NCBI GenBank assembly: GCA_027493625.1
Contig: JAOSKM010000003.1
Location: 599,028 to 663,027 of the forward strand
Direction: 5' to 3'
DNA: 64,000 nucleotides
Source of the DNA: Planctomycetota bacterium
GTDB taxonomy: Bacteria; Planctomycetota; UBA8742; UBA2392
The notes beneath the pieces were generated by a model. The model worked only from the letters and a program-made list of their open reading frames with translations, made no database searches and was not told the origin of the DNA. This document shows, piece by piece, positions 41,570 through 56,508 of this stretch (the stretch's first letter is position 1; the number at the start of each line of letters is the position of its first letter). A program made the position numbers and the translations under genes.

Positions 41570-44500
41570 CTAGGCTCGGCGCCTGCGGATGGCAACCAGG
41601 CTGACCAGCGCCAGTGCCAGCAGGGCGAACAGCGGGGTGCTGCTGTCGCCCGCGACGCAACCGCCGCCGCCGCCACCACCGCCGCCTCCGCCGCTGACGC
41701 CGCCCAGTGCGGCCGTGCCGGAGACGTTGATGTCGTAGGGGCTTTCATCCGGGTCGTCGCTGGTGATCGCGATCGCGAACGAGAACAAGCCGTCGGCGGT
41801 GGGTGTGACGCTGACCGTGAAGGTGGTGCTGGTACCCGGCGCGACAGTTGCAGCCGGGGCGGCACTGAGGCTGACGGTGCAGTTCACGGTCGCCGAGGTG
41901 TTGACGCCGGTGATGTTGAGGTCGACGTTGCCGGTGTTGGCGACGGTGTAGGTGACCAGCGTGGCCTGGCCGGTGTTGCGGGTTCCCAGGTTGTCGGTGC
42001 CGCCGTCAGGGATGACGGTCGATGCGGCGTCGCTGACCTCGATGTCGGGGGCCCCGCGGCGGTGCCGTTGACCGAGAAGTCGTAGGGGTTTTCGTTGACG
42101 TCGTCGTTGTTGATCGAGATGTCGAAGCTGAAGGCGCCCGGAACGGTGGGCGTCACGCTGACGGTGAAGGTGGTGGAACCGGCCAGGGCGACAGGCGAAC
42201 CGGGGTTGGAGGTCACGCTGGCGGCGCAGTTCACGGTGTTGGAGATGACCACGGTGGTGATGTTCAACTCGGCGCTGCCGTTGTTCTCGATGGTGTAGGT
42301 GATCGGCAGGGCCTGCCCGGTCTGGGCGCCGGTCACGGTGTCGCTGCCGCCGACGGGGATGGCGGTCGCGGTGGCGTTCAGGACGTCGATCTCCGGCGTC
42401 ACCACTTCAACCGCCACGAACAGCGTGGTGGTGTTGGTTCCGTCGGTGACATCCACCTCGAACACGTGGGTTCCCAGGTCCGCGAGCTGCAGCGCCGCGG
42501 TGGGTGTGGCCACGATCGAGCCCGCCACCAGGCTGATGTTGAAGCCCGAGCCGCCGGCGGGGTTGCCCGCGTCGGGCGTGACGGTACCCAGCGCCGGGTT
42601 CTGGCCGGTGTTCGGGTCATCCACGTCGGCCAGGGTCAGCGCGGCGACGCTGCCGACCAGGGCCTGTCCGGTGTAGGCGGTGCCGGAGGTCTGGCCGGTG
42701 CCCGCGCCGGCGTCGACGCCGATGGCGTGGGTCGGCGCGAGGTCGAGGATGATGATGGAGGCCGTGAAGTTCACGGTGTTGATGCCGTCGTTGACGGAGA
42801 TCTGCCAGGTGTAGCTGCCCGGCGTGTTGGAGGCGTCGGCGGTGCCGGTCCAGTTGAGGGTAATGGGCCCTGCAGTCGGGGTGGCGATGCTGGCCGGCGC
42901 GCTGGTGATGGTGGTGGGGGTGGCTCCCGGCGGGGTGACGGTGACGGTCATGTCGTCGGGCGTGGGGTCATCGACTTCCAGGTCGTCGTTGTAGGCGGCG
43001 CCCGGGTTCAGCGTCAGCTCATAGTTGCCGCCGTTGTTCACCCAGTTCGAGCCGGTGGGGATGGTCACGGAAGGCGGGGTGTTCGCCACGCCGGTGCCGG
43101 TGACTGTGAAGGTGTAGGGGTTCTCGTCGGGGTCGTTGTTGGCGATGCTGACGGTGAAGCTGAAGGCGCCCGCCGCCTGCGGCGCGACGTTGACGACGAA
43201 CGAGCTGGTGCCCGCCGCCGCGATGGGGCTGGTGGGGTTGGTCGTGACGCTGACGTTCACGTTGCTGACCGGGTTGACCGCGACCAGCGGCGTGCCCGTG
43301 AGGTTGAGGTTCACGCCGCCCAGGTTCTCGATGTCCCAGGTGAAGTTCTGGCCGACGGTCATCACGCCGCCGATGGCATCGGTGCCGCCGTTGGACACGC
43401 TGGCCGACGTCGCGTTGTTCTTGACGTTCATGTCGGGTGAATCGCTGAGCGAGAAGTCATCAAGCGCCACGTCGTGGCTGGTGCTGCTGCCGTGGCTCTG
43501 GATGCGGAACTGCAGCTGGACGATCCCCACCGTCACGCTGGACAGGTCCACCACGTGCTCGGTCCAGCCGGAGTTGGCCTGCAGCGCGGTGATGATGTCG
43601 TTGGTGATCGTCTTGCTCATCACGTCAACCAGGTCGACGTGCAGGATGTTGGGACCGGCGGTGGTGCTGGCGTTCACCGAGTGCAGCCAGAAGCGGAACG
43701 CCGGCAGGCTCAGCGCCGAGATGTCGAACGGCGGCGTGCGCATGCGCTGTTCCGCCGTGTAGGAGTTGGAGTCTTCGAAGTAGATGTAGCGGCCGGAAGT
43801 GGTGCCCGGGTTGTGGTCGGTGGCGGGACCGGTGCCGCCGGTCGGGGTGCCGTTGTTGTCCACGTACCAGTCGTTCGTGCCGTCGCTGGTGTCGTTCCAC
43901 CAGCCGTTGGTCAGCGGAACCGGGTTGGTGGAATCCAGCGCCAGGGTCTCCAGGTTGTCGGTCCAGGGGAACGACGCCACCAGGTACACGGTGTGGATGG
44001 TGGTGACCAGGGCGGTGGTGACGCGCACCGGGCCCGGCGTGGCCGAGATGTCCGAGGCCGGGGAAAGAGTCGCGCCGAAGGTGGTGCCGTTGTTGATGCC
44101 GGTGCCCAGCGAGTAAGTGACCACGTAGGAACGCGTCTGGCTGGAGGTCAGCGAGTTCAGCGGCGAGCCGCTGATGGTCAGCGTGCCGCCCGAGAAGGTC
44201 TGGGGCGAGCCGAGCTGGGTTTCGCCGGTGTCCACGAAACCGTTGCCGTTGGCGTCATCCCACAGCTTCACGGCGGTGATGTCGGTGTCGCTGATGGTGC
44301 CGGTGCGGGTCAGCGTGATGCTGTTGATGTCCTGGTTCGCGACGGATGAAGCCGTCAGGGAGAAGGACTGCACCACGTGGTCGGTGATGCCGGACGGCAC
44401 CACGCCCGGCGCGTAAACGGTCTTGCCGTCGAAGGTGACCTCGGGCGCGATGATGTAGACGCCGAGGATCGTGGCGGAAGGCACGCCCAGCACCGCCGAA

Positions 44501-45928
44501 GTACCGGCGGAACTGCCCGCCTGCACCGCGTAGTTGAACGTCTCGGTGACGCTGGCGGTGCCGCCCAGCTTGATGACGATGAAGTAGGTCTTGGTCTCAC
44601 TGGCCGCGAAAGTCGCTTCGCCGCCCGAGAACGGGATGGTCGCCTCGGCCGGGCTGCCGGCGAAGGTAGCCGTGCTGATCAGCGCGTCGCCCGCGTCGTA
44701 CGAACCCACGGTGCCGCTGGCGGTCTGGTCGCGGTACACCGCGAACTCGGCATAGTCGTTCAGGTGGTCGCCGGTGCCGCTGCCCCGGATGGTGAGCGAG
44801 TTCAGCGTCACGCTGCTGAAGGCGTTCGCCGTGACCGTGAACCTGCCGGCCTCAAAACCGATGCCGCCGCCGGTCTCATTGTTCTGCACCGGCTCGGCTG
44901 TGCCGACCACCGCGGATACCGTCACGGCCGGACCGTTGATGACCAGTCCTTCCATGGTGCGGCTGGGGACGTTGAAAATGGTGGCGCTGGCGCCGGTGGC
45001 AAGCGCGGCAACCTTGTACTTGAAGGTCTGCGCCGTGATCGCCGTGCCGTTCAGCTGCACCACGATGAAGAAGCGCTTGTCGGCGGCCGGGGCAAAGGTC
45101 TGTTCGCTGACCGGCACACTGATGGTGGCCTGGGGCGGTCCGCCGCTGAAGGTGCCGCTGCCGATCAGCACGTCACCGGCGTCGTAGGATCCGGACGGTG
45201 CCGCTGGCGGTCTGGTCACGATAGAGCTGGAAGCTGGTGTAGGCGGTTCCGTGGTCGCCGGTGCCCAGGCCTTCGATGGTGATGCTGCTGATGTCGTCAC
45301 TGGCGTTGCCGTTATTCAGGATGCGGAAGGTGGCGGCCTGGTAGCCGATGCCGCCGCCGTTTTCGTTGTTAAGCACGGACGCCGCGGTGCCCTTGATGGC
45401 ATCCACGTCCAGGCCCGGGTCAACGCGTTCGGCGACCGTGAAGTTGGCGGCAACACCGCCGTTCAAGGTGCCGGCAAGCGTGGACCACAGCAGCTGGCCC
45501 TGGGGCAGGTTGGCAGTGGACGTCCCGCGCCAGTGCAGCGCGTCGCCGATGCCGCTCGGCGTCCAGTAATCCAGCACGTAGCTGAAGGTGGGGCCGTTGT
45601 GCCCGCCACCCGAGCTGCTCATGCCGGTCCAGGGACCGACGGGCAACTGACCCGACGAGATCTGCCAGGCCGTGAGCGGTGATGAGGTGGCGTGATCACC
45701 GAAGATCAGCCAGCGCCAGGCCTGACCGGGTTGGTAGGTCATGTCGTTGTTGTCGACCACCAGCACGAAGTCGTACTGGTAAGTGCCGGTTCCAAGATCT
45801 TTGACCTGGTACTTGAGGGTCAGAGGGACGGCTGCGAGCGACCCTGCACCGAGCAGTATGGCCGCAAGCAGCACAACCCGCAGTGTGCGGGTGCTGAAAC
45901 AGTGCATCATGATTGTTTGACTCCCCAC
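41570..45928 (-). CDS. giant secreted surface protein (~1450 aa) with repeated choice-of-anchor-D-type domains and a MYXO-CTERM-like tail; two apparent 1-bp frameshifts
   Basis: Signal peptide MMHCFSTRTLRVVLLAAILLGAGSLAA. Repeats ...TFTVSVTPT..G.FSF.I.I.NDDPDENPY.F.V.GT. C-terminal GGGGGGGGGGGCVAGDSSTPLFALLALALVSLVAIRRRRA. The frame breaks at gtccggatcc (~45190) and gggcccccg (~42045). Confidence 0.7.
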
Positions 45929-46175
45929 GTCGTCAATTGAACTTCATTCTTACATCCAGGAGCTCGCCACCAAACGTGGTATCGGACAGCATGGATGCAA
46001 GTGAGCGGTCATTATGTCCGCAATCCTTGCCAGTTCAAGGGTTCGCACGCATGGTCGTTGGCTTTTCCCATCGGAGAAAGAGAAATAAGTCATACACTAG
46101 TCGTGTGCGTGCTGGGCAAGATGCCGGCCAGCAATCGTGGGACTTCATTGGTTAATAGTAGGAAGCAACCGCTCC

Positions 46176-46245
46176 TGGCAGGACGTGAGAGAGTCGAACT
46201 CCCCCGGCCGGCTTTGGAGACCGGCCCGGCCCCGGGCCCCGTCCT
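46176..46245 (-). pseudogene. degenerate tRNA-like element (70 nt, T-arm and acceptor recognisable, no clean anticodon arm)
   Basis: ...GGGAGTTCGACTCTCTCACGTCCTGCCA with the 5' strand AGGACGG. Confidence 0.25.
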
Positions 46246-46246
46246 G

Positions 46247-46271
46247 TGGTTCGCAGGCAAGGATTCGAACC
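46247..46271 (-). repeat. partial 3'-end copy of tRNA-Gln (25/26 nt), att-like
   Basis: tggttcgcaggcaaggattcgaacc versus tggttcgcgggcaaggattcgaacc at 46400. Confidence 0.7.
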
Positions 46272-46399
46272 CCGAAACAGTCCAGCGGACTGTTTCGGAC
46301 CCGCAGCAGGCCGGCCAAAGCTCGCCGGAAGGGCGAGCGACGCCGGCCGTAAGCGGAGGGGTCGCCCTATCAGGCCGGCATTCCCTTCATCTAGAGGCT

Positions 46400-46474
46400 T
46401 GGTTCGCGGGCAAGGATTCGAACCTTGATTTCCTGGTTCAGAGCCAGGCGTCCTACCAGTTGGACGACCCGCGA
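46400..46474 (-). tRNA. tRNA-Gln(CTG)
   Basis: TCGCGGGTCGTCCAACTGGTAGGACGCCTGGCTCTGAACCAGGAAATCAAGGTTCGAATCCTTGCCCGCGAACCA. Confidence 0.8.
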
Positions 46475-46571
46475 GCGGTGTAGGGACACGCTGCCGCGTG
46501 TCCCTACGTTCCCGGTTTTCGCTTTCGAAGGACGGGGACAGTCCCGAACTTCCGAGACAGTCCCCTTCCGA

Positions 46572-47186
46572 TCAGATGCCCGACAGGATTGTCGGGCCCA
46601 CCCGGTCCTTCAGAAACGCCTTCCAGCTCTCCTGCAGCGCTACTCCACCAAGGATCAGCTGGTCGCGCGTCGGCTGGAACGGCTGGCGGCGCAGCGCCAG
46701 GCCGGCCTCAACCGGCGTGCGGTCGGCCTTCTGGTTATTGCAGCGGCCGCAGGCCAGCACGCAGTTCAGCCAGCTGGTGCCGCCGCCGCGCGAGAGCGGC
46801 TGCACGTGGTCGATCGTCATTGCGCGCTTGTGCACGAAAATGCCGCAGTACTGGCACTGGCCGTTGTCGCGCTCGAACACGCCGCGGCGCGAGTAGGGCA
46901 CGCCGGTGTTGGGGTAGCCGGCGAAGCGGGCGAGTGTGATGACCTCCGGCTTGCGCACCTGCAGATGCGCCGTGCGGATGTAGTCGTGCTCGATTACATG
47001 CGCATCGGCCGGCACGGCCTTCTCGCTCAGCCACTGGGCCCAGTCGAACAGCTGGTAAGTCTCCGGGCACACGACGCGCGCGCGGCCGCGGAAAACCAGT
47101 GTCAGGGCCTGCTTGACGACCACGGTGGTGATCGGCTGCCACACGCGGTTGAGTGTCAGCACACGCTCGAGTTCAACACGCGTCAT
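46572..47186 (-). CDS. HNH endonuclease embedded in the tRNA array
   Basis: GQCQYCG...MTIDHVQPLSRGG...NCVLACGRCNNQKADR HNH motif; start MTRVELERVL within ORF 46572..47336. Confidence 0.8.
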   Translation of the reverse strand: MTRVELERVLTLNRVWQPITTVVVKQALTLVFRGRARVVCPETYQLFDWAQWLSEKAVPADAHVIEHDYIRTAHLQVRKPEVITLARFAGYPNTGVPYSRRGVFERDNGQCQYCGIFVHKRAMTIDHVQPLSRGGGTSWLNCVLACGRCNNQKADRTPVEAGLALRRQPFQPTRDQLILGGVALQESWKAFLKDRVGPTILSGI

Positions 47187-47202
47187 ACAGCCTCCTTTCA
47201 GG

Positions 47203-47253
47203 GTCAGGGTCAGGCTCAATTTCGGCCGGCACGGACGAAATTGTGCCTGACCC
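47203..47253. repeat. long hairpin at the HNH gene 5' end; related copy at 48813..48848
   Basis: gggtcaggctcaatttcg gccggcacgga cgaaattgtgcctgaccc. Confidence 0.6.
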
Positions 47254-47267
47254 TTTTGAGCGTTCGT

Positions 47268-47341
47268 TTGGTAGCGGCGGCCGGAATCGAACCGGCTGGG
47301 TTGGGCGTATGAAACCCACCCGCGTCCAACGCGCACCGCAG
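47268..47341 (-). tRNA. tRNA-like, possible tRNA-Met(CAT); poor acceptor and D-arm, may be a pseudo-tRNA
   Basis: Good T-arm/3' acceptor GCCGGTTCGATTCCGGCCGCCGCTACCA and anticodon arm TGGGT-TTCATAC-GCCCA. Confidence 0.3.
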
Positions 47342-47344
47342 TGA

Positions 47345-47424
47345 TGTTTGGGCGATTGGGTGAATGTGACCTTCACCTATCGAAGGGAAAGCGGTGCTTT
47401 CCCTTCGATACAATCGCTTCGCGA
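47345..47424 (-). ncRNA. conserved spacer element with a covarying hairpin, immediately 3' of tRNA-Lys; homolog at 48076..48154
   Basis: accttcacctatcg-[aagggaaagc ggtg gctttccctt]-cgatacaatcgcttcgcgattgg. Confidence 0.4.
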
Positions 47425-47498
47425 TTGGTCCGCCCGGCGGGACTTGAACCCGCATCTGACCGGGTAAGAACCGGCCGCTCTGCATTGAGCTACAGGCG
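47425..47498 (-). tRNA. tRNA-Lys(CTT)
   Basis: TCGCCTGTAGCTCAATGCAGAGCGGCCGGTTCTTACCCGGTCAGATGCGGGTTCAAGTCCCGCCGGGCGGACCA; two G-U pairs in the acceptor stem, short D-loop. Confidence 0.7.
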
Positions 47499-47502
47499 AA
47501 TA

Positions 47503-47576
47503 GTGGAGCCGCTGGTGGGAATCCAACCCACGTCTCACCGTTACGAAGGGTGGGTCCTTGCATTGGACGACAGCGA
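47503..47576 (-). tRNA. tRNA-Thr(CGT), array copy, unlike the host tRNA-Thr at 27952
   Basis: GTCGCTGTCGTCCAATGCAAGGACCCACCCTTCGTAACGGTGAGACGTGGGTTGGATTCCCACCAGCGGCTCCA. Confidence 0.65.
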
Positions 47577-47635
47577 CGTAGGGGCCGCCCTGTGTGGCGG
47601 CCCGGCGAGAGGGCACATGGGCCCGCCCCTGCAGA

Positions 47636-47709
47636 TTGGACCCCAGTGAGTGAATCGAACACTCGTCTCTTCTTTGTAAGAGAAGCGTCTTGCCATTGGA
47701 CGAACCGGG
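47636..47709 (-). tRNA. tRNA-Val(TAC)
   Basis: CCCCGGTTCGTCCAATGGCAAGACGCTTCTCTTACAAAGAAGAGACGAGTGTTCGATTCACTCACTGGGGTCCA. Confidence 0.75.
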
Positions 47710-47710
47710 G

Positions 47711-47781
47711 GTCGCGATGACAGGACTCGAACCTGCGTTCTCCTGCTCCCGAAGCAGGCGTCCTTCCCTGGACCACATCGC
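47711..47781 (-). tRNA. tRNA-Pro(CGG), CCA not encoded, abuts tRNA-Val
   Basis: CGCGATGTGGTCCAGGGAAGGACGCCTGCTTCGGGAGCAGGAGAACGCAGGTTCGAGTCCTGTCATCGCGA. Confidence 0.75.
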
Positions 47782-47788
47782 GTTGTGT

Positions 47789-47863
47789 TTGGTCGGCTCG
47801 GCCGGAATCAAACCGGCGTTTCGGCTTTCGGAGAGCCGCGTCCTGTTCCCTGGACGACGAGCC
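47789..47863 (-). tRNA. tRNA-Arg(CCG)
   Basis: CGGCTCGTCGTCCAGGGAACAGGACGCGGCTCTCCGAAAGCCGAAACGCCGGTTTGATTCCGGCCGAGCCGACCA; perfect stems. Confidence 0.8.
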
Positions 47864-47920
47864 GGAAAGGGGTCTGGCTCCGCGCAGCGGTGCCTGACCC
47901 CTTTCCGGCGGTCGCCGCGA

Positions 47921-47995
47921 ATGGCGAGCGTACGGGGATTCGAACCCCGACCGTCTGGTTGAGAACCAGAAGTCCTTGCCGTTAGACGATACGCC
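47921..47995 (-). tRNA. tRNA-Glu(CTC)
   Basis: GGGCGTATCGTCTAACGGCAAGGACTTCTGGTTCTCAACCAGACGGTCGGGGTTCGAATCCCCGTACGCTCGCCA. Confidence 0.8.
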
Positions 47996-48000
47996 CGAAG

Positions 48001-48075
48001 CTGGCGACCCCACGGGGAGTTGAACCCCGACCTTCCCGGAGACAACGGGAAATCATAGCCGTTAGACCATGGGGC
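48001..48075 (-). tRNA. tRNA-Asp(GTC)
   Basis: GGCCCCATGGTCTAACGGCTATGATTTCCCGTTGTCTCCGGGAAGGTCGGGGTTCAACTCCCCGTGGGGTCGCCA. Confidence 0.7.
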
Positions 48076-48154
48076 CATGCCTTGGATGAGCTGTGGCAAC
48101 CTTCACCTATCGCGGGCAGAGCAGTGCTCTGCCCGCGATACATTCGCTGCGCGA
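48076..48154 (-). ncRNA. conserved spacer element with a covarying hairpin, 3' of tRNA-Ile
   Basis: accttcacctatcg-[cgggcagagc agtg ctctgcccgcg]-atacattcgctgcgcgaatgg; the stem sequence differs from the 47345 copy but pairing is preserved. Confidence 0.4.
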
Positions 48155-48228
48155 ATGGTAGAGACACGCGGAATCGAACCACGATCTGCCGGTTATCAAC
48201 CGGCTGCTCTGCCATTGAGCTATGTCTC
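48155..48228 (-). tRNA. tRNA-Ile(GAT)
   Basis: AGAGACATAGCTCAATGGCAGAGCAGCCGGTTGATAACCGGCAGATCGTGGTTCGATTCCGCGTGTCTCTACCA. Confidence 0.8.
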
Positions 48229-48234
48229 TGCAGG

Positions 48235-48306
48235 GCTGGCTCGGCAGGACTCGAACCTGCATCGCAGACTTCGCACGCCTGTATCCTTCCGGTTAGACGA
48301 CGAGCC
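48235..48306 (-). tRNA. tRNA-like, anticodon possibly GCG (Arg); no encoded CCA, G at position 32
   Basis: TGGCTCGTCGTCTAACCGGAAGGATACAGGCGTGCGAAGTCTGCGATGCAGGTTCGAGTCCTGCCGAGCCA. Confidence 0.35.
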
Positions 48307-48399
48307 ATTGGTTGTTTGCGCCAACGGCCGCTCATGCAGAGCCGCGCCCATGTGCCGGGATCGGATGGCCTGCCATGAGCGGGCCGAAGGCGAGTGAAA

Positions 48400-48473
48400 T
48401 GGTAGACCGGCTGGGATTTCAACCCAGACTGCACGCTTGCAGGGCGTGTGTGCTCGCGTTGACACTACCGGCC
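48400..48473 (-). tRNA. tRNA-like (anticodon arm CACGC-CCTGCAA-GCGTG, TGC?); mismatched acceptor, probable pseudo-tRNA
   Basis: Good T-arm and CCA; the 5' acceptor strand GGCCGGT does not pair with 3' CCGGTCT. Confidence 0.25.
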
Positions 48474-48533
48474 CGTAGCGCAGGCGCCCCGCCTGCACCG
48501 GCCGGGGCGCCTCGCCCCCGGCGGTTGGTTCGT

Positions 48534-48608
48534 TGGAGCCCCCGGGCGGAATCAAACCGACCGTCTTCTGAATGGCAATCAGAGATTCTGTCACTGAACT
48601 ACGGAGGC
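48534..48608 (-). tRNA. tRNA-Gly(GCC)
   Basis: GCCTCCGTAGTTCAGTGACAGAATCTCTGATTGCCATTCAGAAGACGGTCGGTTTGATTCCGCCCGGGGGCTCCA. Confidence 0.7.
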
Positions 48609-48720
48609 AAGCGGCGGCAAAGCCGCCTTGAGAATTGCGCCCCCGCCCAGGCGGGGGCGTGTACTGACTCAGCACCGTTGTCAAAGAACTGGCCTGCCCG
48701 CCATAGCCTTGGCGAAGGCG

Positions 48721-48794
48721 GGTGGAACAGCCTGGACTCGAACCAGGATCTTCCGGTTTTCAGCCGGACGCTCTGCCCGTTGAGCTACCGATCC
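48721..48794 (-). tRNA. tRNA-Phe(GAA), 3' tail ACCC
   Basis: GGATCGGTAGCTCAACGGGCAGAGCGTCCGGCTGAAAACCGGAAGATCCTGGTTCGAGTCCAGGCTGTTCCA. Confidence 0.65.
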
Positions 48795-48812
48795 GTTCTC
48801 CCGCCATCGGGA

Positions 48813-48848
48813 GGGGGTCAGGCACAATTTCGTTCCGAAATTGAGCCA
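48813..48848. repeat. hairpin related to 47203..47253, flanking the 5' side of the tRNA array
   Basis: ggtcaggcacaatttcg ttc cgaaattgagccagacc. Confidence 0.55.
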
Positions 48849-49139
48849 GACCCCAAGCTGGGTGCAGGCGCAGAGTCAAACTGCCCCTCCGCGGTCACAA
48901 CGCGGCGTGCTTTCGCTACACCAACCCGCACATGAATTCCCCAAACGAAAGCGGGGACCCCGCATGGAGTCCCCGCCGCGTAAAACCGGGCATTTCAGCC
49001 CCGCGGTGGACTCCTCAATTCGCGATCATGGCCCGCTTCCGGCCGTGGACCGCGCAGACTCGCCTGGATACCTCGCTTCGACATGACTCTGCTTTCTGGC
49101 TCAACCTGCTTCGTTCGGTACCACACAGATACACCATGC

Positions 49140-49175
49140 ATATTGACACGTCAATACTATTCTTGACGTGTCAAT
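49140..49175. promoter_or_regulatory. AT-rich perfect palindrome with TTGACA-like hexamers; candidate promoter/operator for leftward transcription into the tRNA array
   Basis: ttgacacgtcaa tactattc ttgacgtgtcaa. Confidence 0.45.
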
Positions 49176-49223
49176 ATAAACGCGGTTGCCGGCCGCGCGG
49201 TTTCAAAAAAACTGCCGGCGCTT

Positions 49224-49634
49224 CTACTGGCGGCGCCGGCGACCCGTCAGGAATCCGCCTCCTCCTCCGATCAGCCCGCCCAGGATCAGCCCCAGCACGC
49301 CCTCGAGGTAGCTGTCCTGCGCCCGGGCGCGCTCCAGCTCGCCCTTGGCGGTTTCGAAGGCGTTGCGGGTCTGCTCGAACTTCAGCTCGCGGCTGCGGCG
49401 CTCGTCCTCTGCTGCCTGCAGCGCGGCCAGCGCCGCCTGCACGCGGTCGCCTTCGCCTTCCTTCAGCGCCTCGATGTACGCGCCGCGCGTTTTCTCGGCC
49501 ACTTCCATGGCGTCGCGCAGCTCGGCGCCGGCTTGCTCCATGGCGTCGCGGGTGCGCTCGGCGGTTTCCAGGGCGTACTGCAGGCTGCTGCAGCCCGCCA
49601 GCACAACAAACAACAGGGGGATGACGTACTTCAT
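49224..49634 (-). CDS. lipoprotein with coiled-coil and C-terminal TM segment (unimolecular-spanin-like architecture)
   Basis: MKYVIPLLFVVLAGC lipobox; C-terminal GVLGLILGGLIGGGGGFLTGRRRRQ. Confidence 0.45.
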   Translation of the reverse strand: MKYVIPLLFVVLAGCSSLQYALETAERTRDAMEQAGAELRDAMEVAEKTRGAYIEALKEGEGDRVQAALAALQAAEDERRSRELKFEQTRNAFETAKGELERARAQDSYLEGVLGLILGGLIGGGGGFLTGRRRRQ

Positions 49635-49658
49635 GGGGAACTCCTTTCGGGATGGGTG

Positions 49659-49877
49659 TCAGCGGGTTTCCAGCACGGCCAGGCGCTCGGCGTGTTCGCT
49701 GCTGGCGCGATACAGCTCACGGATGTCGTCGCGCTGCAGCTCGGACTGCTTGGCCAGCGCGTCCACCACGCCGGCCAGCTTCAGCACCGCGTTGTTCAGT
49801 CGCAGGCACACGCCGATCAGCCCGATGCCGATCGCGCCGATCCACGCGCTGGCCACGCTGATGATCACGGCTTCCAT
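49659..49877 (-). CDS. small membrane protein (72 aa), holin-like
   Basis: N-terminal TM MEAVIISVASAWIGAIGIGLIGVCL plus charged C-terminus; ATGA coupling to the upstream ORF. Confidence 0.4.
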   Translation of the reverse strand: MEAVIISVASAWIGAIGIGLIGVCLRLNNAVLKLAGVVDALAKQSELQRDDIRELYRASSEHAERLAVLETR

Positions 49878-50134
49878 TACCGGCCTCCCAGCAGTGCGAT
49901 GTCTTCGGCGCTGGCGCCCAGGGCCAGCAGGCGTTGCTCGGCGGCGAACACCCGGTCGCGCTTCGCCAGCTCGCTCCGCAGGCGCTCGGCCTCCGCGCGC
50001 GCGTCCGTGTTGATGGCGGCGCGGAACTCAACCAGCAGCGAGGGCCAGGCCTGCTCGAAGTCAAACCCCGGCTCGAAGCTGCGCGCCGTCAGTACCAGGT
50101 TCAGGAGTTGGGTTGCCGCTGCCTGCCAGTCCAT
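49877..50134 (-). CDS. hypothetical protein (85 aa)
   Basis: ORF in operon context. Confidence 0.3.
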   Translation of the reverse strand: MDWQAAATQLLNLVLTARSFEPGFDFEQAWPSLLVEFRAAINTDARAEAERLRSELAKRDRVFAAEQRLLALGASAEDIALLGGR

Positions 50135-50143
50135 TGGATTTCC

Positions 50144-53100
50144 TCAGGTTGGAGTGCCGATCACCAGCAGGCGGAACGCGACACCGCTCGCGTTCCAGGC
50201 GCCGTTGGTGCTGTTGATTGTCAGGGTTTGCGCGCTGCCGGCGCCCGGGGCGTTCAGGCTCCAGGTCGCCCAGTGAGAGCCGTCGGCGTCGTACTTCAGG
50301 TTGATCGTGCCCGTGCCGCCCATCGGCCAGCTTGAACTGGGGCCGCTGCCGCTGCCGTCGCGGCACTGGTAAATGAAGTGCGCGCGGTTGATGCCGGTCA
50401 GCGCCACCGTCTTGCCGCTCACGCCGCTGCCGCTGTACTCGACCACGCTGGCGACCAGGTTGGCGCCGGCCGGATGCAGGTCCTCGAACTTCGCGAACTT
50501 CGCCACCCCCGCGTCATCGATCACCAGCAGCTTGTAGCCGTCAGTGACGGCCGAGAGCTGGCCGAGCCCCGCCACCGTGGCCAGCAGGTGCTGCAGTTGC
50601 GACTTGCGCCCGACCAGGCTGGTGCGGACCATGAATTCATCGGTGGGGCTTAGCGTGGAGTCTGAGGTGGCGTTATTGATCAGCTCGTTGATGGCGCCGT
50701 CTGCGCTGCTCGCGGCGGTTCCGCCGTTGGCCAGCGACAGCGGCAGGGCGGGCAGCTCGCTGCTGTAGGCCAGCTTGTTCGCGCCGTGGTAGAGGCGCGA
50801 GTCGCTGCTCTTGATCCAGGCCGTGTTCGCCGCCACGCCGCCCGGATTGGCGCTCTGCGGCGTGAGTTCAAGCCCCGTGGGGTCGATCAGCCCGGCCACG
50901 CCCAGCTTGCCCCCGACTTCCAGGTTGCCGTCCGTACGCAGGGTGTTTGATCCGTCGCGATAAAGCTCGACGTCCTTGCCGAATGCGATGCCCTCGTCGT
51001 CACCGGCCCCCAGCCGCAGCGCCTGGCTGTCGCCGAAGTTCGCATCCGCCGGCCCGACCTGCAGGTGACCCGTAACGTGCACGCCGCGCGACAACCCGGC
51101 CGGCGTTGACGCGTCAACATCTCGCGGCAGCAGTTCAAGATGACCGCCCGATGTGGCAAGGCGCACGTCCCAGCCCGAGTGCACACGGCCGGCGGCGAAG
51201 TGCGGGTGGCCGAACGCCAGCACCACTTCGGGGTGCAGCGCGAGGAACGTCTGGCGCGCCCCCGAATCGAGTTGCGCGGCGGGCATGGCGACGCCCGGCG
51301 GCAGGTAGATGCAGCCGCCGCCGAGGCTGGGGTCGGGTACGCCGTTCGCTTCGCCGGCCCAGCCTTGGCTCTTGATGCTGGGGCCGGGGTAGGGCGTTTC
51401 GCGCTCCTGCCCGCGTTCGCTGGGCGCCGGCACCCAGTCGTGGCTGGGCGCCCACAGCTCGTACTCGCTGACCGCCGGCCGAATGTCGTACGGCACGCAC
51501 AGCATGGTCGGCACGTAGGGCGGCGGCGGGTCCTCGACCGGCGGCGCGGGCGGCGGGCCGATCGGCGGCTTCCAGGTGGGCGGGATCTCGGGCAGGAAAG
51601 GCACCCGGTACTGGATCTTCCAGCGCCCTTCGCGTTGCGTGTGGTTCCAGGGGTGGCGCTCGGCGGCGTCGTACTTGAGCTGCGCCTCATAGGGCGGCCA
51701 GGGCGGGATGCCGCCCGCAAATGGCTCAGCGTAGAACTTCACGGGCGCGTCGTGCACCGCGTCGCCCGGGACCTTGAAGAACGCGTCCGTGCTGATGTGC
51801 CCCGCGCTCTCGCGGTACACGCCGTCCTTCACGGCTGTGCCGTACAGGTGTTTGCTGCACGCGTCGGCGTCGGCCAGTATCGGCCCTCCCTGCAGCGTAG
51901 CCGTGAGGCGGCCGAGCGAGCGCCCGTCGGTTTCCGCGAACAGCCCGCGCCCGAGCACTTCCGGGTTGGCGGTGTCGCCTTCGCGCAGGTTCAGCGCCGG
52001 GGCCCAGCCGCCGTCGCGGGCGCCTTCCTGCCGGTGCGCGGGGCTGAGCGCCAGCACGCTCAGGAACTGCAGCCCGCCGCGCCGGCCCAGGCTTGACCCG
52101 TCAAGGTCATAGACCAGGCTGGAAGATGCACCCGGCTCAGGCCCACGTGCGTCGGCAACCAGCGGCCCGCAATCCACGAAGTGCGGCTCGTCGCCAAGGC
52201 TCACAATCAGGCCGCGCATAGCCTGCGGCAAAACGTGGCGGGCTTCGAACAATTGTTTGGGCGCAATCTCCGCGTGGCGTTCGTCCGGCGCCAGCACGCG
52301 CAGCCGGCCGGAGTCTACGACCTCCACGCCGGCGACGAAGAACCAGCGCCCGAACTTCGCGGCGTCGCTGCTTTCGAGAAAGAACGGAAACGCCAGCGGG
52401 CCCGGGTGGCGCAGCTCCAGCGCGCCTGTGTCGTCGCGGCGGTGCAGCGCTTCCACCGCGAGCACGCTTTCGCCTTCGGGTGCTTCGCCGCTCGCGCGCA
52501 GCACCAGCGGCCCCGCACGGAAAGCGTTGATCGGCTGGTGCAGCCCGCTAGGTGTCGGCGCCGACGAGCGCGAACCCGCCAGGCGCGGAGCGCCAGCGTC
52601 AGGCGCGGCCGGCAGAACATGCGCGCGCTCGCTGATGGTGCTGACCAGCCCATCGGGGCCGGCCTCGATAACCACACGTTCGACCGCACCCTGGGCCAGC
52701 GCTTCGCAGACACCTGCCAGCTTCGCCACGCGCCGTGAATGCACGTGTTGGTGAACGGCGGCAAGTTCGGAGGCCGCCGCGCGCAGGGCGCCGGCGTTCA
52801 CCACCGCGCCGCTTTTGTACAGCGCAACCAGGTGCTGCGCGTGCAGCGTGATCGGCTCACCTTCGCCGCCGGGGAAGTCCGCCGTAAAAGGCGGGCGCGT
52901 CGCAACGTGCGCAACGCGCAGGCTCAGCTTCGCGGCGCCGCTCAGGCGGCGATCCTGCAGCGTGGGATCGTCGGCGCCGCCGCCTGGCTGAAGCAGCGCA
53001 AACGGCGGCCGCGGCAGGTAGACCAGGCCGGCGTCGGCCTCCAGCTCAAAACCCTCAATCGGCTCGGCAACCGTCTCTTCAATACTGCGCTGCGCCGGGT

Positions 53101-54061
53101 GTTTCGGCGCCGTGTTCAGTGGCCGTGCGATGTGTGCCGTGAGCGACGGCGGCTGAAAGGTGCCGTCCTCATTCAATCCGCCCACGGGCAGCCAGGGCAG
53201 CGTCACCCCGCGCGCGCGGAACAGCCGGAACGCGTAGCGCTTCAGCGCCGCCAGGCGCGCAGCACCGTTGGGAGCCGTGGCGGGCAGCAGCGTCTCGAAG
53301 CCGCCGTCGCTGAGGCAGGCCTGGCGCGCGACGTGCTCGCTGACTCCCCACTGCGCAAGCACCTCGGCCAGTGGCTGCAGCGCGCCGCTGTCGTCCGGTA
53401 GCACCGGCTCGAAGTCGGTCAGCTCGGACAGCTCCAGTGCAGGGCCGCCGACCACCGTCACGCTCGAGGGCCGCTGTGCCTGCGAGGCACTGATCTCGAT
53501 CAGCCGTGTTTCATTCAGCGCCGCAGTTGTCTCGGCTGAAGCAACTGCAACCTGGCCCTCGTCATTTACCGTGCAGCTCAGACCCACGCTTGCCAGCAGG
53601 GCCTCGACGGCATGGCCAAGATCGCCGTTGGCGCGCAGGTTGACCGGCGCCGCCGTGCCGCCCGGCAGGCGCGGCGCTTCTGTCGCGTCCAGGCCGGCGG
53701 CCTCGAACAGGCGTTCGATCGCGGCCTGGGCGCTCAGTGGCTCGCCCTCGCGCCAGGCCGTGCCGTCGCCGACGGGCGCGTTGATTTCGCATCGCACCGG
53801 CCGGCGCCAGCTTTCGCGCAGATCGCTGCCGGTCACGCGCACGCGGCCGTCACCCAGCGCTTCGACACGCCGGGCGGTGAACTGGCTGAAGGTGCGCCGT
53901 GTTTCGGCGTCCGCAACGTGCAGCACCACCGGCCCCGTCTGCGCGATGGCGCTGGGCGGCAATACGGCTTCAAAGCTGGAAGCGCTGCCGCCGCGCCGCA
54001 GCTCGATGCGCAGGCCGAGCAGCGATTGCCCGTTGAGTGTGGCTGTGACGTGCTCGTTCAT
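50144..54061 (-). CDS. phage tail fibre / host-specificity-like protein (1305 aa)
   Basis: Large size; ...ELYRDGSNTLRTDGNLEVGGKLGVAGLIDPTGLELTP... fibre-like motifs. Confidence 0.55.
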   Translation of the reverse strand: MNEHVTATLNGQSLLGLRIELRRGGSASSFEAVLPPSAIAQTGPVVLHVADAETRRTFSQFTARRVEALGDGRVRVTGSDLRESWRRPVRCEINAPVGDGTAWREGEPLSAQAAIERLFEAAGLDATEAPRLPGGTAAPVNLRANGDLGHAVEALLASVGLSCTVNDEGQVAVASAETTAALNETRLIEISASQAQRPSSVTVVGGPALELSELTDFEPVLPDDSGALQPLAEVLAQWGVSEHVARQACLSDGGFETLLPATAPNGAARLAALKRYAFRLFRARGVTLPWLPVGGLNEDGTFQPPSLTAHIARPLNTAPKHPAQRSIEETVAEPIEGFELEADAGLVYLPRPPFALLQPGGGADDPTLQDRRLSGAAKLSLRVAHVATRPPFTADFPGGEGEPITLHAQHLVALYKSGAVVNAGALRAAASELAAVHQHVHSRRVAKLAGVCEALAQGAVERVVIEAGPDGLVSTISERAHVLPAAPDAGAPRLAGSRSSAPTPSGLHQPINAFRAGPLVLRASGEAPEGESVLAVEALHRRDDTGALELRHPGPLAFPFFLESSDAAKFGRWFFVAGVEVVDSGRLRVLAPDERHAEIAPKQLFEARHVLPQAMRGLIVSLGDEPHFVDCGPLVADARGPEPGASSSLVYDLDGSSLGRRGGLQFLSVLALSPAHRQEGARDGGWAPALNLREGDTANPEVLGRGLFAETDGRSLGRLTATLQGGPILADADACSKHLYGTAVKDGVYRESAGHISTDAFFKVPGDAVHDAPVKFYAEPFAGGIPPWPPYEAQLKYDAAERHPWNHTQREGRWKIQYRVPFLPEIPPTWKPPIGPPPAPPVEDPPPPYVPTMLCVPYDIRPAVSEYELWAPSHDWVPAPSERGQERETPYPGPSIKSQGWAGEANGVPDPSLGGGCIYLPPGVAMPAAQLDSGARQTFLALHPEVVLAFGHPHFAAGRVHSGWDVRLATSGGHLELLPRDVDASTPAGLSRGVHVTGHLQVGPADANFGDSQALRLGAGDDEGIAFGKDVELYRDGSNTLRTDGNLEVGGKLGVAGLIDPTGLELTPQSANPGGVAANTAWIKSSDSRLYHGANKLAYSSELPALPLSLANGGTAASSADGAINELINNATSDSTLSPTDEFMVRTSLVGRKSQLQHLLATVAGLGQLSAVTDGYKLLVIDDAGVAKFAKFEDLHPAGANLVASVVEYSGSGVSGKTVALTGINRAHFIYQCRDGSGSGPSSSWPMGGTGTINLKYDADGSHWATWSLNAPGAGSAQTLTINSTNGAWNASGVAFRLLVIGTPT

Positions 54062-55195
54062 CTAAACCTCCGGCGCCAGCTCGACCATGGCCGCGCGCCC
54101 GCGCGAAACGTAGCGCCAGCTGGTGACCCAGCGGCGGTCGGCGGGCAGGCCCCCGTGCGGCAGTGAGTACTCGACGTGCCGCTCGATAAGCTCGGCGGCG
54201 TAGCGCGGCGCGGGCGGGCTGACGTGGCGGCCGTCGCCGACCGCGCTGCCCTGCTGAATGATCTCCGTCTGCGGCGCGCCCACCTGCTGGCGATATGCTG
54301 GCAGCGCGGTGTCGAGCAGCGGGTGGTCGATAACGCGCCGCGTGGTGGTGAACGAAAGCGTTTCGGTCAGCGCCAGGCTGCCGGCCTCTTCCAGCAGTTC
54401 CACGAACTCGAAATCAACGCGCCGCGTGAACGGGTTCGCCGCGATGCGCGTCGAGACCAGCCGCTCACCGGCCGGGCGCAACTCCAGCGCGCGGGCCCGG
54501 GCCGAGGCGCCCACGAAGAAGCCGCTCAGGGCCCGCACCGTGCGGCCTTCGGCATCTGTGAACTCGCTGGCGACATAGTGGCCGTCGTCCACGCCGCCGG
54601 GCAGCGGCGTGAACACCTGCTCATCTTCGACTTCGTACTCGAGCGCGGGTACCACCGTGTCGCGCGTGACCACCGTGCGCACGCGCCGCCAACCGGCGCC
54701 CAGCACGGGCTGCAGCAGCGCCTCGAAGTCGGCGGGGTTCTCGTTGCGGCGCAAGATTGCCAGCCCCTTGGTGACCAGCCTGGCGGGCTGGCCGGCGGCC
54801 GTCGCCTCGCGCACCGTGTACTGGTGCGACTGCACGGCGCTCGCGGACTCCTGCAACGTGGCGCGGAATTCCAGCGTCACCCCGCGCCGGTTGTGGGCCT
54901 GGCCGGGCACGCGCTCGCGCTCCGTGACCGCGTGCAGCGTGGGGCCGAGCCGGCAGTCCGCGACAGTCAGCACGCGCACGTCCGTGCCGTCGGCCTGCAG
55001 CTTCAGGTCGCCGCCGCTTCCCTGCGCGTCGCGCAGGCTCTGCAAGGCGGATTCCAGGGCGGCGGGCGTGGCTGCTTCGACTTCCAGCTCGATCAGCCAG
55101 CGCTCGGTCACCTCTGGTGACTTGCCCGTGCGGCAGACGTCCAGGCTGGTAGCGGCGCCGAGTGCGGCGCCGTTAAAATGCAGTGCGAGTGTCAT
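54062..55195 (-). CDS. phage virion-associated protein, hypothetical (377 aa)
   Basis: ORF coupled to the tail-fibre gene. Confidence 0.45.
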   Translation of the reverse strand: MTLALHFNGAALGAATSLDVCRTGKSPEVTERWLIELEVEAATPAALESALQSLRDAQGSGGDLKLQADGTDVRVLTVADCRLGPTLHAVTERERVPGQAHNRRGVTLEFRATLQESASAVQSHQYTVREATAAGQPARLVTKGLAILRRNENPADFEALLQPVLGAGWRRVRTVVTRDTVVPALEYEVEDEQVFTPLPGGVDDGHYVASEFTDAEGRTVRALSGFFVGASARARALELRPAGERLVSTRIAANPFTRRVDFEFVELLEEAGSLALTETLSFTTTRRVIDHPLLDTALPAYRQQVGAPQTEIIQQGSAVGDGRHVSPPAPRYAAELIERHVEYSLPHGGLPADRRWVTSWRYVSRGRAAMVELAPEV

Positions 55196-55197
55196 GG

Positions 55198-56508
55198 CTA
55201 CTCCGCCAGGGTGTCCGAGATGGTGGGCGTGCCGGACGACGGCAGGGCGATCTCCAGGCGCTCGCGCGCGAACACCTGGAACGCGCCGGCCTCGTCACTG
55301 GTGCTGTCCAGCGTGAAGCGGTCGGCGACAGGCGCAGTCTGCGGGGCCGCGGCGCCTTGAAAGATCGCCAGCCGCAGGCCCGCATGGGGCACTTCGGTCG
55401 CGGGCGCCAGCGACACGCCGTCCAGGTACACCGCGCCGTTGAAGGTCGCGCCGCAGCGGATGCGCACCTTCACCTTGTTGGGGAAGCTGCCGCGCGGCAG
55501 GTATTGCAGGCCGCCGAGGTGCAGCCACTGGCCCGTGGGTGTTGACCCGTCAATGGTGAGCGTCAGCGCCGAGGCCGCACCGTCGATCAGCAGGTCCAGC
55601 TTCACGTCGCCGCCGGAGTAGCTGCCGACGTACACCCAGGCGCCCAGGGCCCAGAAACGGCCGGATTCCAGGGGCGGGTCGCGATCGGCCAGGTCCTGCT
55701 GCAACTCGCCGGACGTGGCGCCGTTGCCGGTGATCTTCAGTGATCCGCCGCCGAAGAGCTTGGTGGCGGTATCGCGGCTGAACGCGCTGCCGCCGCTGAT
55801 CACGCTCCAGTGGTCCAGCACGCCCGCGGTATCGTCCTCGAAGGCGCCGTCCGTCACCACGTTGCGCGCGTCCGTGATCGCCCCGTAGGTCACCGGGATC
55901 GCGCGGGTGCTGACCGGCGGGCCGACTTCCGGCCGAATGCGGAACTCTTCCTGCCCCACGGGCACGCGGTGGCGCGGGTTGTCGCGCACGCACTCGATGC
56001 AGATGCGCTGGTTCACGATGCGCTCGTCATCGACCAGGTTCTCAGCGGCGTCCACGGTCTGCTTGCTGACGTAGCAGGCCGCGTCGCCGGCGTTGGCGAC
56101 GTCCGCGCTGACTGCACCCAGGCTGACCGCGTTGGCGGCCACGCTCTCGGCGTCGGCCAGCATGGCGCGTTGCAGCTCACGCAGCAGCTCGGCGCGAGAA
56201 GCGCCCTCGGAATTCAGCTCGGCGGCCAGGGCATCGCGGATCCAGGCGTCGAGGGACTGCTGCAGCTGCGCGCCCCAGCCGCGGGCCACGCGGGCGGCGT
56301 CGGCCAGCACGCCCACCGCGTCAAGGCGGTCGCGCTCGGCGGGTGCGTCATTGAGCACATCCACGAACTCTTCGCGCAGCTTGTCCAGGCTGCGGAAAAC
56401 CTCGCCGCCGCTGCTGAAGCTCAGGTTGCGCTCGGCCAGGTTGTCGAGCTGCGTGAAGGCGCGGGCGTACTGGCCCAGCACCTGGAAGATCGTCGTGTAG
56501 TTCGGCAT
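55198..56508 (-). CDS. phage virion-associated protein, hypothetical (436 aa)
   Basis: ORF in a co-directional cluster. Confidence 0.45.
   Translation of the reverse strand: MPNYTTIFQVLGQYARAFTQLDNLAERNLSFSSGGEVFRSLDKLREEFVDVLNDAPAERDRLDAVGVLADAARVARGWGAQLQQSLDAWIRDALAAELNSEGASRAELLRELQRAMLADAESVAANAVSLGAVSADVANAGDAACYVSKQTVDAAENLVDDERIVNQRICIECVRDNPRHRVPVGQEEFRIRPEVGPPVSTRAIPVTYGAITDARNVVTDGAFEDDTAGVLDHWSVISGGSAFSRDTATKLFGGGSLKITGNGATSGELQQDLADRDPPLESGRFWALGAWVYVGSYSGGDVKLDLLIDGAASALTLTIDGSTPTGQWLHLGGLQYLPRGSFPNKVKVRIRCGATFNGAVYLDGVSLAPATEVPHAGLRLAIFQGAAAPQTAPVADRFTLDSTSDEAGAFQVFARERLEIALPSSGTPTISDTLAE

Follow-up and report, generated by a model that had tools for sequence, protein, structure and literature searches.

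We analysed a 64,000-nt window of a Planctomycetota bacterium (assembly GCA_027493625.1, contig JAOSKM010000003.1), the whole stretch to which all positions and strands below refer, and focused on a dense cluster of tRNA genes on its minus strand. Between 46176 and 48931 this strand carries 16 co-oriented tRNA genes with 16 distinct anticodons for 15 amino acids, along with a gene for an HNH endonuclease that lies inside the array. ARAGORN called 15 minus-strand tRNAs, from 46177 to 48931; 13 of them exceeded the gathering score of Rfam RF00005, which also recovered one gene that ARAGORN had missed, a Thr-CGT tRNA at 47507-47577 (43.9 bits). The resulting density is 5.8 genes per kb (16 genes in 2.76 kb), and the remaining 61 kb of the window hold just two tRNAs, Arg-ACG at 11872 and Thr-CGT at 27952. 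Read 5' to 3' along the minus strand, the genes and the elements between them follow one another in this order:

48860..48931, minus strand: tRNA-His(GTG), with encoded G-1:C73 and CCA (ARAGORN; Rfam 35.2 bits)
48721..48794, minus strand: tRNA-Phe(GAA), CCA not encoded (ARAGORN; Rfam 66.3 bits)
48534..48608, minus strand: tRNA-Gly(GCC) (ARAGORN; Rfam 49.9 bits)
48400..48474, minus strand: tRNA-Ala(TGC), with a G3:U70 pair (ARAGORN; Rfam 44.7 bits)
48234..48307, minus strand: tRNA-Arg(GCG), CCA not encoded (ARAGORN; Rfam 51.1 bits)
48156..48229, minus strand: tRNA-Ile(GAT) (ARAGORN; Rfam 69.3 bits)
48077..48155, minus strand: double-hairpin spacer element of about 80 nt, copy 1, 80% identical to the copy at 47343-47425
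48002..48076, minus strand: tRNA-Asp(GTC), anticodon stem fully compensated in orthologues (ARAGORN; Rfam 48.9 bits)
47922..47996, minus strand: tRNA-Glu(CTC) (ARAGORN; Rfam 59.7 bits)
47790..47864, minus strand: tRNA-Arg(CCG) (ARAGORN; Rfam 55.5 bits)
47710..47782, minus strand: tRNA-Pro(CGG), CCA not encoded, abutting tRNA-Val (ARAGORN; Rfam 65.3 bits)
47637..47710, minus strand: tRNA-Val(TAC) (ARAGORN; Rfam 55.5 bits)
47504..47577, minus strand: tRNA-Thr(CGT), array copy (Rfam 43.9 bits; not called by ARAGORN)
47426..47499, minus strand: tRNA-Lys(CTT) (ARAGORN; Rfam 57.4 bits)
47343..47425, minus strand: double-hairpin spacer element of about 80 nt, copy 2, a repeat of copy 1
47269..47342, minus strand: compact tRNA(CAT), initiator-like, with a short D-loop UUGGA and encoded CCA (ARAGORN; without an Rfam match in the window)
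46572..47186, minus strand: HNH endonuclease gene, 204 aa, within the array and co-oriented with it (Pfam HNH 6e-16; PHROG 16726)
46400..46474, minus strand: tRNA-Gln(CTG) (ARAGORN; Rfam 67.4 bits)
46247..46399, minus strand: 153-nt insertion, whose last 25 nt (46247-46271) duplicate the 3' end of tRNA-Gln
46176..46246, minus strand: compact tRNA-Trp(CCA), with a 4-bp D-stem, 4-nt loop, G73 and encoded CCA (ARAGORN)

The original prediction, made from the sequence alone, had described a dense co-oriented minus-strand array of at least 13 tRNA genes at 46170-48850, and the array is real: the predictors accepted most of the candidates rather than rejecting them. All 11 of the anticodons it had called with confidence were right, and the three it had considered uncertain belong to real tRNAs as well, namely Arg-GCG, Ala-TGC and the compact, Met-like CAT gene, whose orthologues in related genomes score 29-32 bits in Rfam. 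Its inventory was incomplete in that tRNA-His(GTG), which falls barely beyond the stated range, was missed, tRNA-Trp(CCA) was not listed and the HNH open reading frame (ORF) was not mentioned. The degenerate copy that it had reported is present in the form of the 25-nt duplicate of the tRNA-Gln 3' end.

The array is non-periodic and lies entirely on one strand, with spacers of 0-112 nt between its tRNAs; the sole longer gap, of about 800 nt between tRNA(CAT) and tRNA-Gln, contains the HNH gene. Leu, Ser, Tyr, Asn and Cys have no tRNA in it. As had been noted beforehand, the set is non-redundant and its members are atypical: the D-loops of 5 of the 16 lack GG (two more have very short D-arms), 3 of the 16 do not encode CCA, and the array copy of Thr-CGT is just 59% identical to the chromosomal gene at 27952. 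Array tRNAs score 35-69 bits in Rfam, compared with 71-74 bits for housekeeping genes, of which the two in the window reach 71-72. Identity elements are retained in His (G-1:C73), Ala (G3:U70) and Trp (G73). An Rfam search found no rRNA gene in the 64-kb window, and neither Y RNA nor any other known RNA rose above threshold in the array or its relatives. The array is not an rRNA-linked housekeeping cluster.

We found relatives of the array with the HNH protein as an anchor: four Planctomycetota metagenome-assembled genomes from a scan of species-representative genomes (L008-L011, HNH 81-97% identical), two loci from a metagenome scan (L044 and L045), and four loci from look-ups of more distant homologues (L107-L110, 63-83% identity). 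The array, the HNH gene and tRNA-Gln occur in all of these, in the same gene order and with the HNH gene amid the tRNAs at every locus, and at least nine related Planctomycetota assemblies carry the array at the same chromosomal place. Its size varies from about 6 to 16 tRNAs as members are gained and lost (L108 retains about 6), and no relative without an array was seen among those examined. The downstream side was syntenic with the window wherever enough sequence was available, with the surface protein, alcohol dehydrogenase, response regulator/histidine kinase, HD protein and housekeeping tRNA-Thr(CGT) in place. The upstream side could be read in six relatives (L008, L010, L107, L108, L109 and L110), where the array is preceded by rtcB (6 of 6) and rtcA (5 of 6), on the same strand and ending 30-310 nt ahead of its control region; phage genes were absent from this position in 6 of 6. 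In L008, a Ro60/TROVE-vWA gene and a class II ribonucleotide reductase (990-2540 and 5205-7546) lie near rtcB-rtcA and the array, and Rfam detected no Y RNA.

In the window, the upstream position is instead occupied by a block of phage genes, eight genes on the minus strand over about 11 kb (49224-60190), between the array and a full-length arginyl-tRNA synthetase gene of the host. The block encodes a 453-aa protein, a scaffold-like protein, an SU10-type major capsid protein (PF17236, 2e-81), a small lipoprotein, and four proteins of unassigned function, one of them a tail-fibre-like protein of 1305 aa. Since these 11 kb hold no integrase, terminase or replication genes, we regard the block as a cryptic remnant. 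It is shared only with L044, which is apparently of the same species (97-99% DNA identity); the block proteins of L044 are about 94% identical to those of the window, below the flanking host genes. DNA homology between the window and L008 spans 46176 to 49183 and breaks at 49184, where the phage block starts. Because homology stops at this point and the relatives carry the array without phage genes, the array predates the block and is independent of it. This runs counter to the original prediction insofar as it tied the array to the adjacent phage genes. The position of the block beside the array is, on comparison of the loci, a derived rearrangement in this species.

The order in which HNH identity to the window falls (L008; then L009, L010, L011, L107 and L108; then L109; then L110) is the order seen for the alcohol dehydrogenase and response-regulator genes. 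Given this ranking and a syntenic locus in at least nine assemblies, the array is not a recent insertion: judged from the genomes compared, it is old in this Planctomycetota lineage and vertically inherited at a fixed locus, and a recent mobile insertion is not supported. At synonymous sites, HNH and RtcB have diverged about half as much as the flanking alcohol dehydrogenase and response-regulator genes, which could reflect codon bias or occasional exchange. The original prediction had named identical arrays in all relatives at an rRNA operon as an observation that would speak against a mobile-type array; what we found comes near to this in the syntenic assemblies, but no rRNA operon is involved.

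To describe how the tRNAs themselves have evolved, we aligned orthologous array tRNAs from five genomes and counted stem pairs: of 326 pairs, 243 were invariant, 42 showed compensatory double changes, 24 showed G-U-type changes and 21 included a break. The compensatory changes indicate that the cloverleaf is under selection, but the genes also evolve rapidly. The array Thr-CGT of the window shares 74% identity with that of L109 and 65% with that of L110, whereas the housekeeping Thr-CGT gene at 27952, conserved in L108 and L109, is 96-99% identical among the window and these two loci. Gly-GCC is wholly different between the window and L008 despite HNH proteins that are 97% identical, a mismatch that points to gene turnover, and the L010 orthologue of Arg-CCG (9633-9710) has acquired the anticodon CCA and G73 and is Trp-like. 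The array tRNAs are probably spare copies that duplicate decoders encoded elsewhere, as seen for Thr-CGT, and they keep their cloverleaf despite fast evolution.

The D-stem of tRNA(CAT) covaries among orthologues, and a 1:72 mismatch (U.U, C.C or A.C) is found in 9 of 9 of them; such a mismatch is a hallmark of bacterial initiator tRNA. The best Rfam match of tRNA-Trp(CCA) is tRNA-Sec, at a sub-threshold 34.5 bits, and the gene is kept in nine related loci. The L108 copy (about 10697-10771) bears the anticodon UCA and would read UGA.

The choice of anticodons fits the host. Of the 13 degenerate amino acids that the array serves, 10 (Arg, Asp, Gln, Glu, Gly, His, Ile, Lys, Phe and Pro) have an array anticodon that is the exact Watson-Crick cognate of the host's most-used codon; CGC, for example, is the commonest host Arg codon (63% of Arg codons) and is read by Arg-GCG. 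The frequent C at position 34, which had been taken as a foreign signature, is thus explained by the host's GC-rich codon preference. The comparison of the adjacent phage genes with the host that had been proposed alongside it showed nearly identical codon usage. We also considered codon compensation for the phage block and excluded it, as block and host use codons alike and the array fits the host preference.

The HNH protein links the array to a wider family. Its dN/dS (ratio of nonsynonymous to synonymous substitution rates) is 0.17-0.41, its catalytic and zinc-binding residues are invariant, and in the predicted structure (pLDDT, the per-residue confidence score, of 87) the C-terminal domain matches HNH domains of the Cas9/IscB/McrA type; the N-terminal 95 or so residues gave no informative structural match in the PDB. 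It is 33% identical (89% coverage, E 9e-18) to the HNH protein encoded next to the 24-tRNA trn array on pCC7120delta of Nostoc PCC 7120, where the gene lies 200 nt upstream of the array, the position given in the literature for all8564. Other family members lie inside a 28-tRNA array on a Mycobacterium intracellulare plasmid (L103), directly after tRNA-Met as in the window, and inside a 25-tRNA Variovorax array. A 59%-identical copy is found between tRNA-Lys(TTT) and tRNA-Ile(TAT) in L113, a circular jumbo-phage contig of 166.8 kb with a T4-type portal. Members are encoded directly 3' of tRNAs in Arthrobacter phage Mimi and Myxococcus phage Mx1, and they also follow tRNAs in jumbo IMG/VR contigs (L017). 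The HNH homologues of Isosphaera, Alienimonas, Curtobacterium and Persicobacter (32-44% identity), as well as most viral loci, have no tRNAs nearby. With so many homologues away from tRNAs, the family is not exclusive to arrays. The HNH protein is most likely a homing-type DNA endonuclease that has travelled with such arrays and is here under purifying selection. L113 (ENA ERZ25073254 ctg88376), which also contains a gene with an intein, holds the closest non-chromosomal relative of the HNH protein; it may be a phage that infects this bacterial lineage, and it may hint at where the HNH-tRNA module came from. Given this copy, a deeper horizontal origin of the array is possible. The label of phage or mobile type given earlier keeps part of its force, in that the HNH family marks horizontally spread arrays on plasmids and in large phages, and loses the part that concerned the phage block and a recent arrival.

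Between the break in homology and tRNA-His lies a region that we compared across the eight loci that have it (the window, L008, L010, L044 and L107-L110). Its elements in the window are:

49163..49174, minus strand: palindromic box 1, TTGACACGTCAA on the transcribed strand, one of a tandem pair in 8 of 8 loci
49143..49154, minus strand: palindromic box 2, overlapping a -35-like TTGACG, conserved in the 8 loci
48932..49142, minus strand: conserved leader from the boxes to the first tRNA, alignable across the 8 loci
48995..49084, minus strand: putative leader ORF of 29 codons, MSKRGIQASLRGPRPEAGHDRELRSPPRG followed by a stop, with an ORF in 8 of 8 loci
49008..49014, minus strand: segment 2, GGAGUCC, a candidate antiterminator strand in the last leader-ORF codons, complementary to the 5' arm of P3
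48951..48976, minus strand: hairpin P3, GCGGGGACUCC-AUGC-GGGGUCCCCGC, a candidate intrinsic terminator with a U-rich tail, from a terminator scan

Tandem TTGACNNGTCAA boxes, 20-21 bp apart, head the array in 8 of 8 loci, and 17 nt after the -35-like TTGACG there is a conserved -10-like hexamer of the TAT(T/C) type. We infer a putative promoter at about 49140-49175 with two operator-like palindromes, from which the whole array is probably transcribed as one precursor. The boxes are followed by a leader of about 190 nt that ends in P3; over 49183-48859 this region is 90.6% identical to L008. P3 (GCGGGGACyC-loop-GGGUCCCCGC) is invariant and occurs once per locus, always heading the array just before the first tRNA, in 8 of 8 loci, and it was the only solid structure returned by RNAalifold for the whole leader. 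A search of IMG/VR with the P3 pattern gave 103 generic GC hairpins, none of them heading a tRNA array or near the boxes.

The leader ORF has 28-35 codons in the eight loci, its stop lies 15-19 nt ahead of P3, and a purine-rich, Shine-Dalgarno-like stretch precedes it (AAGGAG in L109). Substitutions by codon position were 0.31/0.35/0.39, so that the third position is barely enriched in what is a weak test, and we refer to the ORF as putatively coding; no obvious run of regulatory codons was seen in it. Segment 2 varies among loci (GGAGUCC, GGGUCC or GGGGUCC) and covaries with the P3 5' arm across all eight, the covarying pair being A-U in the window, L044 and L110 and G-C in L107-L109; L108 has a further pair. 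Folded with the 3' arm omitted, segment 2 and the P3 5' arm reached -21 to -29 kcal/mol in every locus, compared with -23 to -26 for P3 alone and about -13 to -20 kcal/mol for controls in which segment 2 was shuffled, so that the real fold is about 3 standard deviations better than the controls. The leader has the anatomy of a leader-peptide attenuator, which, if real, would switch the array on under impaired translation.

One specific form of such control can be put forward, tentatively and with considerable doubt: a translation-sensing attenuator over an operon of spare tRNAs. A ribosome that finishes the 29-codon ORF would mask segment 2, P3 would form, and transcription would stop before tRNA-His; a stalled ribosome, or scarce charged tRNA, would let segment 2 pair with the P3 5' arm, and sixteen tRNAs would be made. 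In the literature we found no description of such control logic for tRNA genes, nor of this conserved leader.

The TTGACNNGTCAA palindrome is not restricted to the promoter. It occurs nine times in the window (19516, 38060, 49143, 49163, 51106, 52093, 55542, 58494 and 60705) against 0.01 expected. Four of these copies fall within the phage block, including one some 110 nt upstream of the capsid gene, and another is in the arginyl-tRNA synthetase gene. A site for a regulator, a site of recombination and a motif spread throughout the genome are all conceivable.

Several repeats and hairpins lie between the tRNAs. The two-hairpin element of about 80 nt directly follows the CCA end of different tRNAs in the window, L008, L009, L011, L045 and L108, is not at the window's positions in the same-species locus L044, and was found inside arrays only among the loci examined; its behaviour is that of a miniature mobile repeat. 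The motif GGGTCAGGC recurs in three long, near-perfect hairpins (47206-47254, 47861-47909 and 48808-48853), one of them just 5' of the ribosome-binding site of the HNH gene; these hairpins may be processing or termination signals. The 153-nt insertion after tRNA-Gln is either a degenerate tRNA-Gln copy or an old integration scar: L044 has it, L009 has it with about 815 additional nt, and L008, where Gln and Trp abut, lacks it. We rejected the repeat of the tRNA-Gln 3' end as a prophage attachment site, as the 25-nt repeats flank just 128 nt and not the phage block; the distribution of the scar, in L044 and L009 and not in L008, gave further evidence against it.

The other genes around the array are as follows. 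Downstream lie a large surface protein, a zinc alcohol dehydrogenase and PDZ-type proteins. The gene for the surface protein (41884-45928, minus strand) is broken into two ORFs, of 251 and 1138 aa, that overlap, and an intact ORF of 1446 aa is present in several Logan contigs and in L044; the break is due either to a frameshift within a repeated domain or to an error in sequencing. At 34302-40488 on the plus strand, three tandem paralogues code for large secreted proteins (545, 722 and 656 aa) whose C-terminal end is PDZ-like, and their number and identity vary among relatives. Beyond the phage block are the arginyl-tRNA synthetase and TPR proteins and, past the window, MauG and TetR genes on contigs of other samples. 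The Logan short-read contigs assembled for this organism from many samples break off at about 50279 on one side and begin again at 48504 on the other; the interval of about 48505-50279 (lipoprotein gene, control region, and His, Phe and Gly tRNAs) is thus rarely assembled and is also the most variable part of the array relative to L008.

L-arrays are long supernumerary tRNA operons that have spread horizontally in several phyla, including Planctomycetes, and have an HNH gene conserved beside them; rtcB lies near them in some species and is co-regulated via tandem promoter repeats (Santamaria-Gomez et al., 2021, PMC8421152). The trn operon of Anabaena is silent and is induced by ribosome-targeting antibiotics (PMC8421152), and its repressor is TrcR (Wang et al., 2023, PMC10272220). 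The window array resembles the cyanobacterial L-arrays such as trn of Nostoc PCC 7120 in being a long, non-periodic run of co-oriented, probably supernumerary tRNAs linked to an HNH gene of the same family, with rtcB nearby (here in six relatives and not in the window) and paired repeat boxes at the promoter. It differs from them in having 16 tRNAs rather than 23-26, in carrying the HNH gene inside the array rather than upstream, in the physical fusion of rtcB-rtcA to the unit in the window's relatives, in the additional leader with its short ORF and candidate terminator/antiterminator, and in anticodons biased to the host's GC-rich codons.

Array units of Mycobacterium avium giant plasmids contain one conserved embedded HNH gene and redundant tRNAs (PMC12803027), and an array unit has been defined as at least 20 tRNAs at no fewer than 2 per kb (Tran et al., 2016, PMC4758250); the window array has the density and falls short of the number. 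Like the mycobacterial units, which occur on plasmids, phages and chromosomes, it has a single embedded HNH gene after tRNA-Met and variants of the D and anticodon arms, and the redundancy of those tRNAs with chromosomal genes is seen here for Thr-CGT. Unlike them, it lies at a fixed chromosomal site; those units have at least 28 tRNAs for 19-20 amino acids at varied sites on mobile replicons.

Large phages such as T5 have tRNA gene regions with homing endonucleases. The tRNA regions of Mimi, Mx1, L017 and L113 share the HNH family with the window, with the nuclease gene 3' of or between tRNAs, but the window array is not in a phage genome, a phage anti-defence use does not apply to it, and its anticodons mirror host-preferred codons rather than complementing rare ones (L113 has Lys-TTT and Ile-TAT). 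Enterobacteria have RNA-repair operons of the types rtcBA and rsr-Y RNA-rtcBA. The array directly follows rtcB-rtcA in relatives, with Ro60/TROVE nearby in L008, and shares the theme of damaged-tRNA rescue with these operons; unlike them, the partner here consists of full tRNAs, and neither an RtcR-like regulator nor Y RNA was detected.

Together, these data are best explained, and with reasonable probability, by a chromosomal accessory tRNA operon of the L-array type: sixteen co-oriented tRNAs with an embedded HNH gene, vertically inherited, ancestrally coupled to rtcB-rtcA, and unrelated to the phage remnant. As the HNH protein belongs to the family of the Anabaena trn L-array and the mycobacterial plasmid arrays, a variant of this known type gives the best fit. 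The ancestral place of the array was directly downstream of rtcB-rtcA, and the cryptic capsid/tail remnant of 11 kb has taken over the upstream side in this genome. During normal growth, the operon would be held low by a repressor at the boxes and by the P3 terminator before the first tRNA. Damage to translation or to the tRNA pool would then switch it on, and the induced operon would top up or replace the most-demanded tRNAs alongside repair by RtcB and RtcA.

Several observations weigh against this reading or parts of it. The role of a stress-induced backup of the tRNA pool is proposed by analogy with the Anabaena trn operon and from the leader anatomy. Inheritance throughout the clade departs from the sporadic, horizontally transferred distribution that defines L-arrays: this array is chromosomal, is present in every relative examined and co-diverges with its flanks, whereas the cyanobacterial ones are sporadic or plasmid-borne. 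The TTGACNNGTCAA boxes are palindromes, unlike the TrcR direct repeats in both sequence and symmetry, and outside the promoter pair the palindrome occurs as single copies, mostly within genes. The U-tract of P3 is weak in some relatives (e.g., L110). None of rtcB, rtcA, Ro60 and NrdJ was found in the 64-kb window, so that a functional link to RtcB is not visible here. Finally, within the window a second gene was seen for Thr-CGT only, with indirect evidence for Arg (array GCG, and ACG at 11872), although the rapid evolution of the array tRNAs and the loss of some of them also favour redundancy.

Three other explanations were weighed. That the array is cargo of the adjacent remnant, serving phage translation or countering tRNA-cleaving host defences, seems to us scarcely credible. 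The SU10-type capsid and tail-like genes lie 300 nt upstream of the array, the HNH family is common in large phages beside their tRNAs, and the array tRNAs score below housekeeping tRNAs; but L008, L010 and L107-L110 have the array without phage genes and with rtcB in their place (rtcA in five), homology is lost at 49184, a point that falls between the block and the putative promoter of the array, the block lacks integrase, terminase and replication genes, is bordered by the host arginyl-tRNA synthetase and has the codon usage of the host, and array divergence follows that of host genes. In sequence searches, the capsid protein had one distant match in IMG/VR (26% identity), without tRNAs, array DNA gave only single-tRNA-sized matches of 76-85% identity to phage genomes, and PADLOC and NCBIfam returned only generic HNH-domain matches for the HNH and block proteins.

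It is also very unlikely that we are dealing with the ordinary housekeeping tRNA operon of the lineage, that is, the main genes for these anticodons in a merely clustered form. Conservation at one chromosomal locus throughout the clade would fit such an operon, as would the match of the anticodons to the most-used codons, the CCA encoded by most of the tRNAs and the identity elements of His, Ala and Trp. Against this, a separate, highly conserved Thr-CGT gene lies 18 kb off and the array copy changes at several times its rate, the Gly genes of genomes with 97% identical HNH proteins are completely different, members are freely lost or remoulded (about 6 left in L108; Arg to Trp in L010), five amino acids are not covered, the Rfam scores fall below those of housekeeping genes, and the window is without rRNA. 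A selfish passenger, in which the HNH homing endonuclease spreads itself and the adjacent tRNAs while these are neutral or near-silent and bring no benefit to the host, is unlikely as well, although this HNH family is found with arrays on replicons of very different kinds, the spread of tRNA regions by a homing endonuclease is known at least from T4 SegB as cited in PMC8421152, and the halved synonymous divergence of HNH and RtcB leaves room for occasional exchange. Neutral tRNAs are hard to reconcile with the many compensatory changes that maintain their stems, and a selfish element with a dedicated and conserved putative promoter, leader and hairpin in 8 of 8 loci, a fixed position, divergence that follows the hosts, an HNH dN/dS of 0.17-0.41 over long divergence, and the presence of the array in all relatives examined.

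For annotation, these results counsel caution, as a tRNA array beside phage genes need not be phage-borne. Accessory tRNA arrays are usually viewed as recently transferred and often silent cargo; here, one has long been kept at one chromosomal site. Its union with the RtcB/RtcA genes in relatives, together with its own conserved control region, strengthens the idea of a regulated backup, which has so far been tested in Anabaena only, and would offer a second, independent system with a concrete and testable cis-element in the boxes, leader ORF and terminator/antiterminator. Should the translation-sensing attenuator prove true, it would, along with the ancestral rtcB-rtcA fusion, make the unit a self-contained module to repair or replace the tRNA pool.

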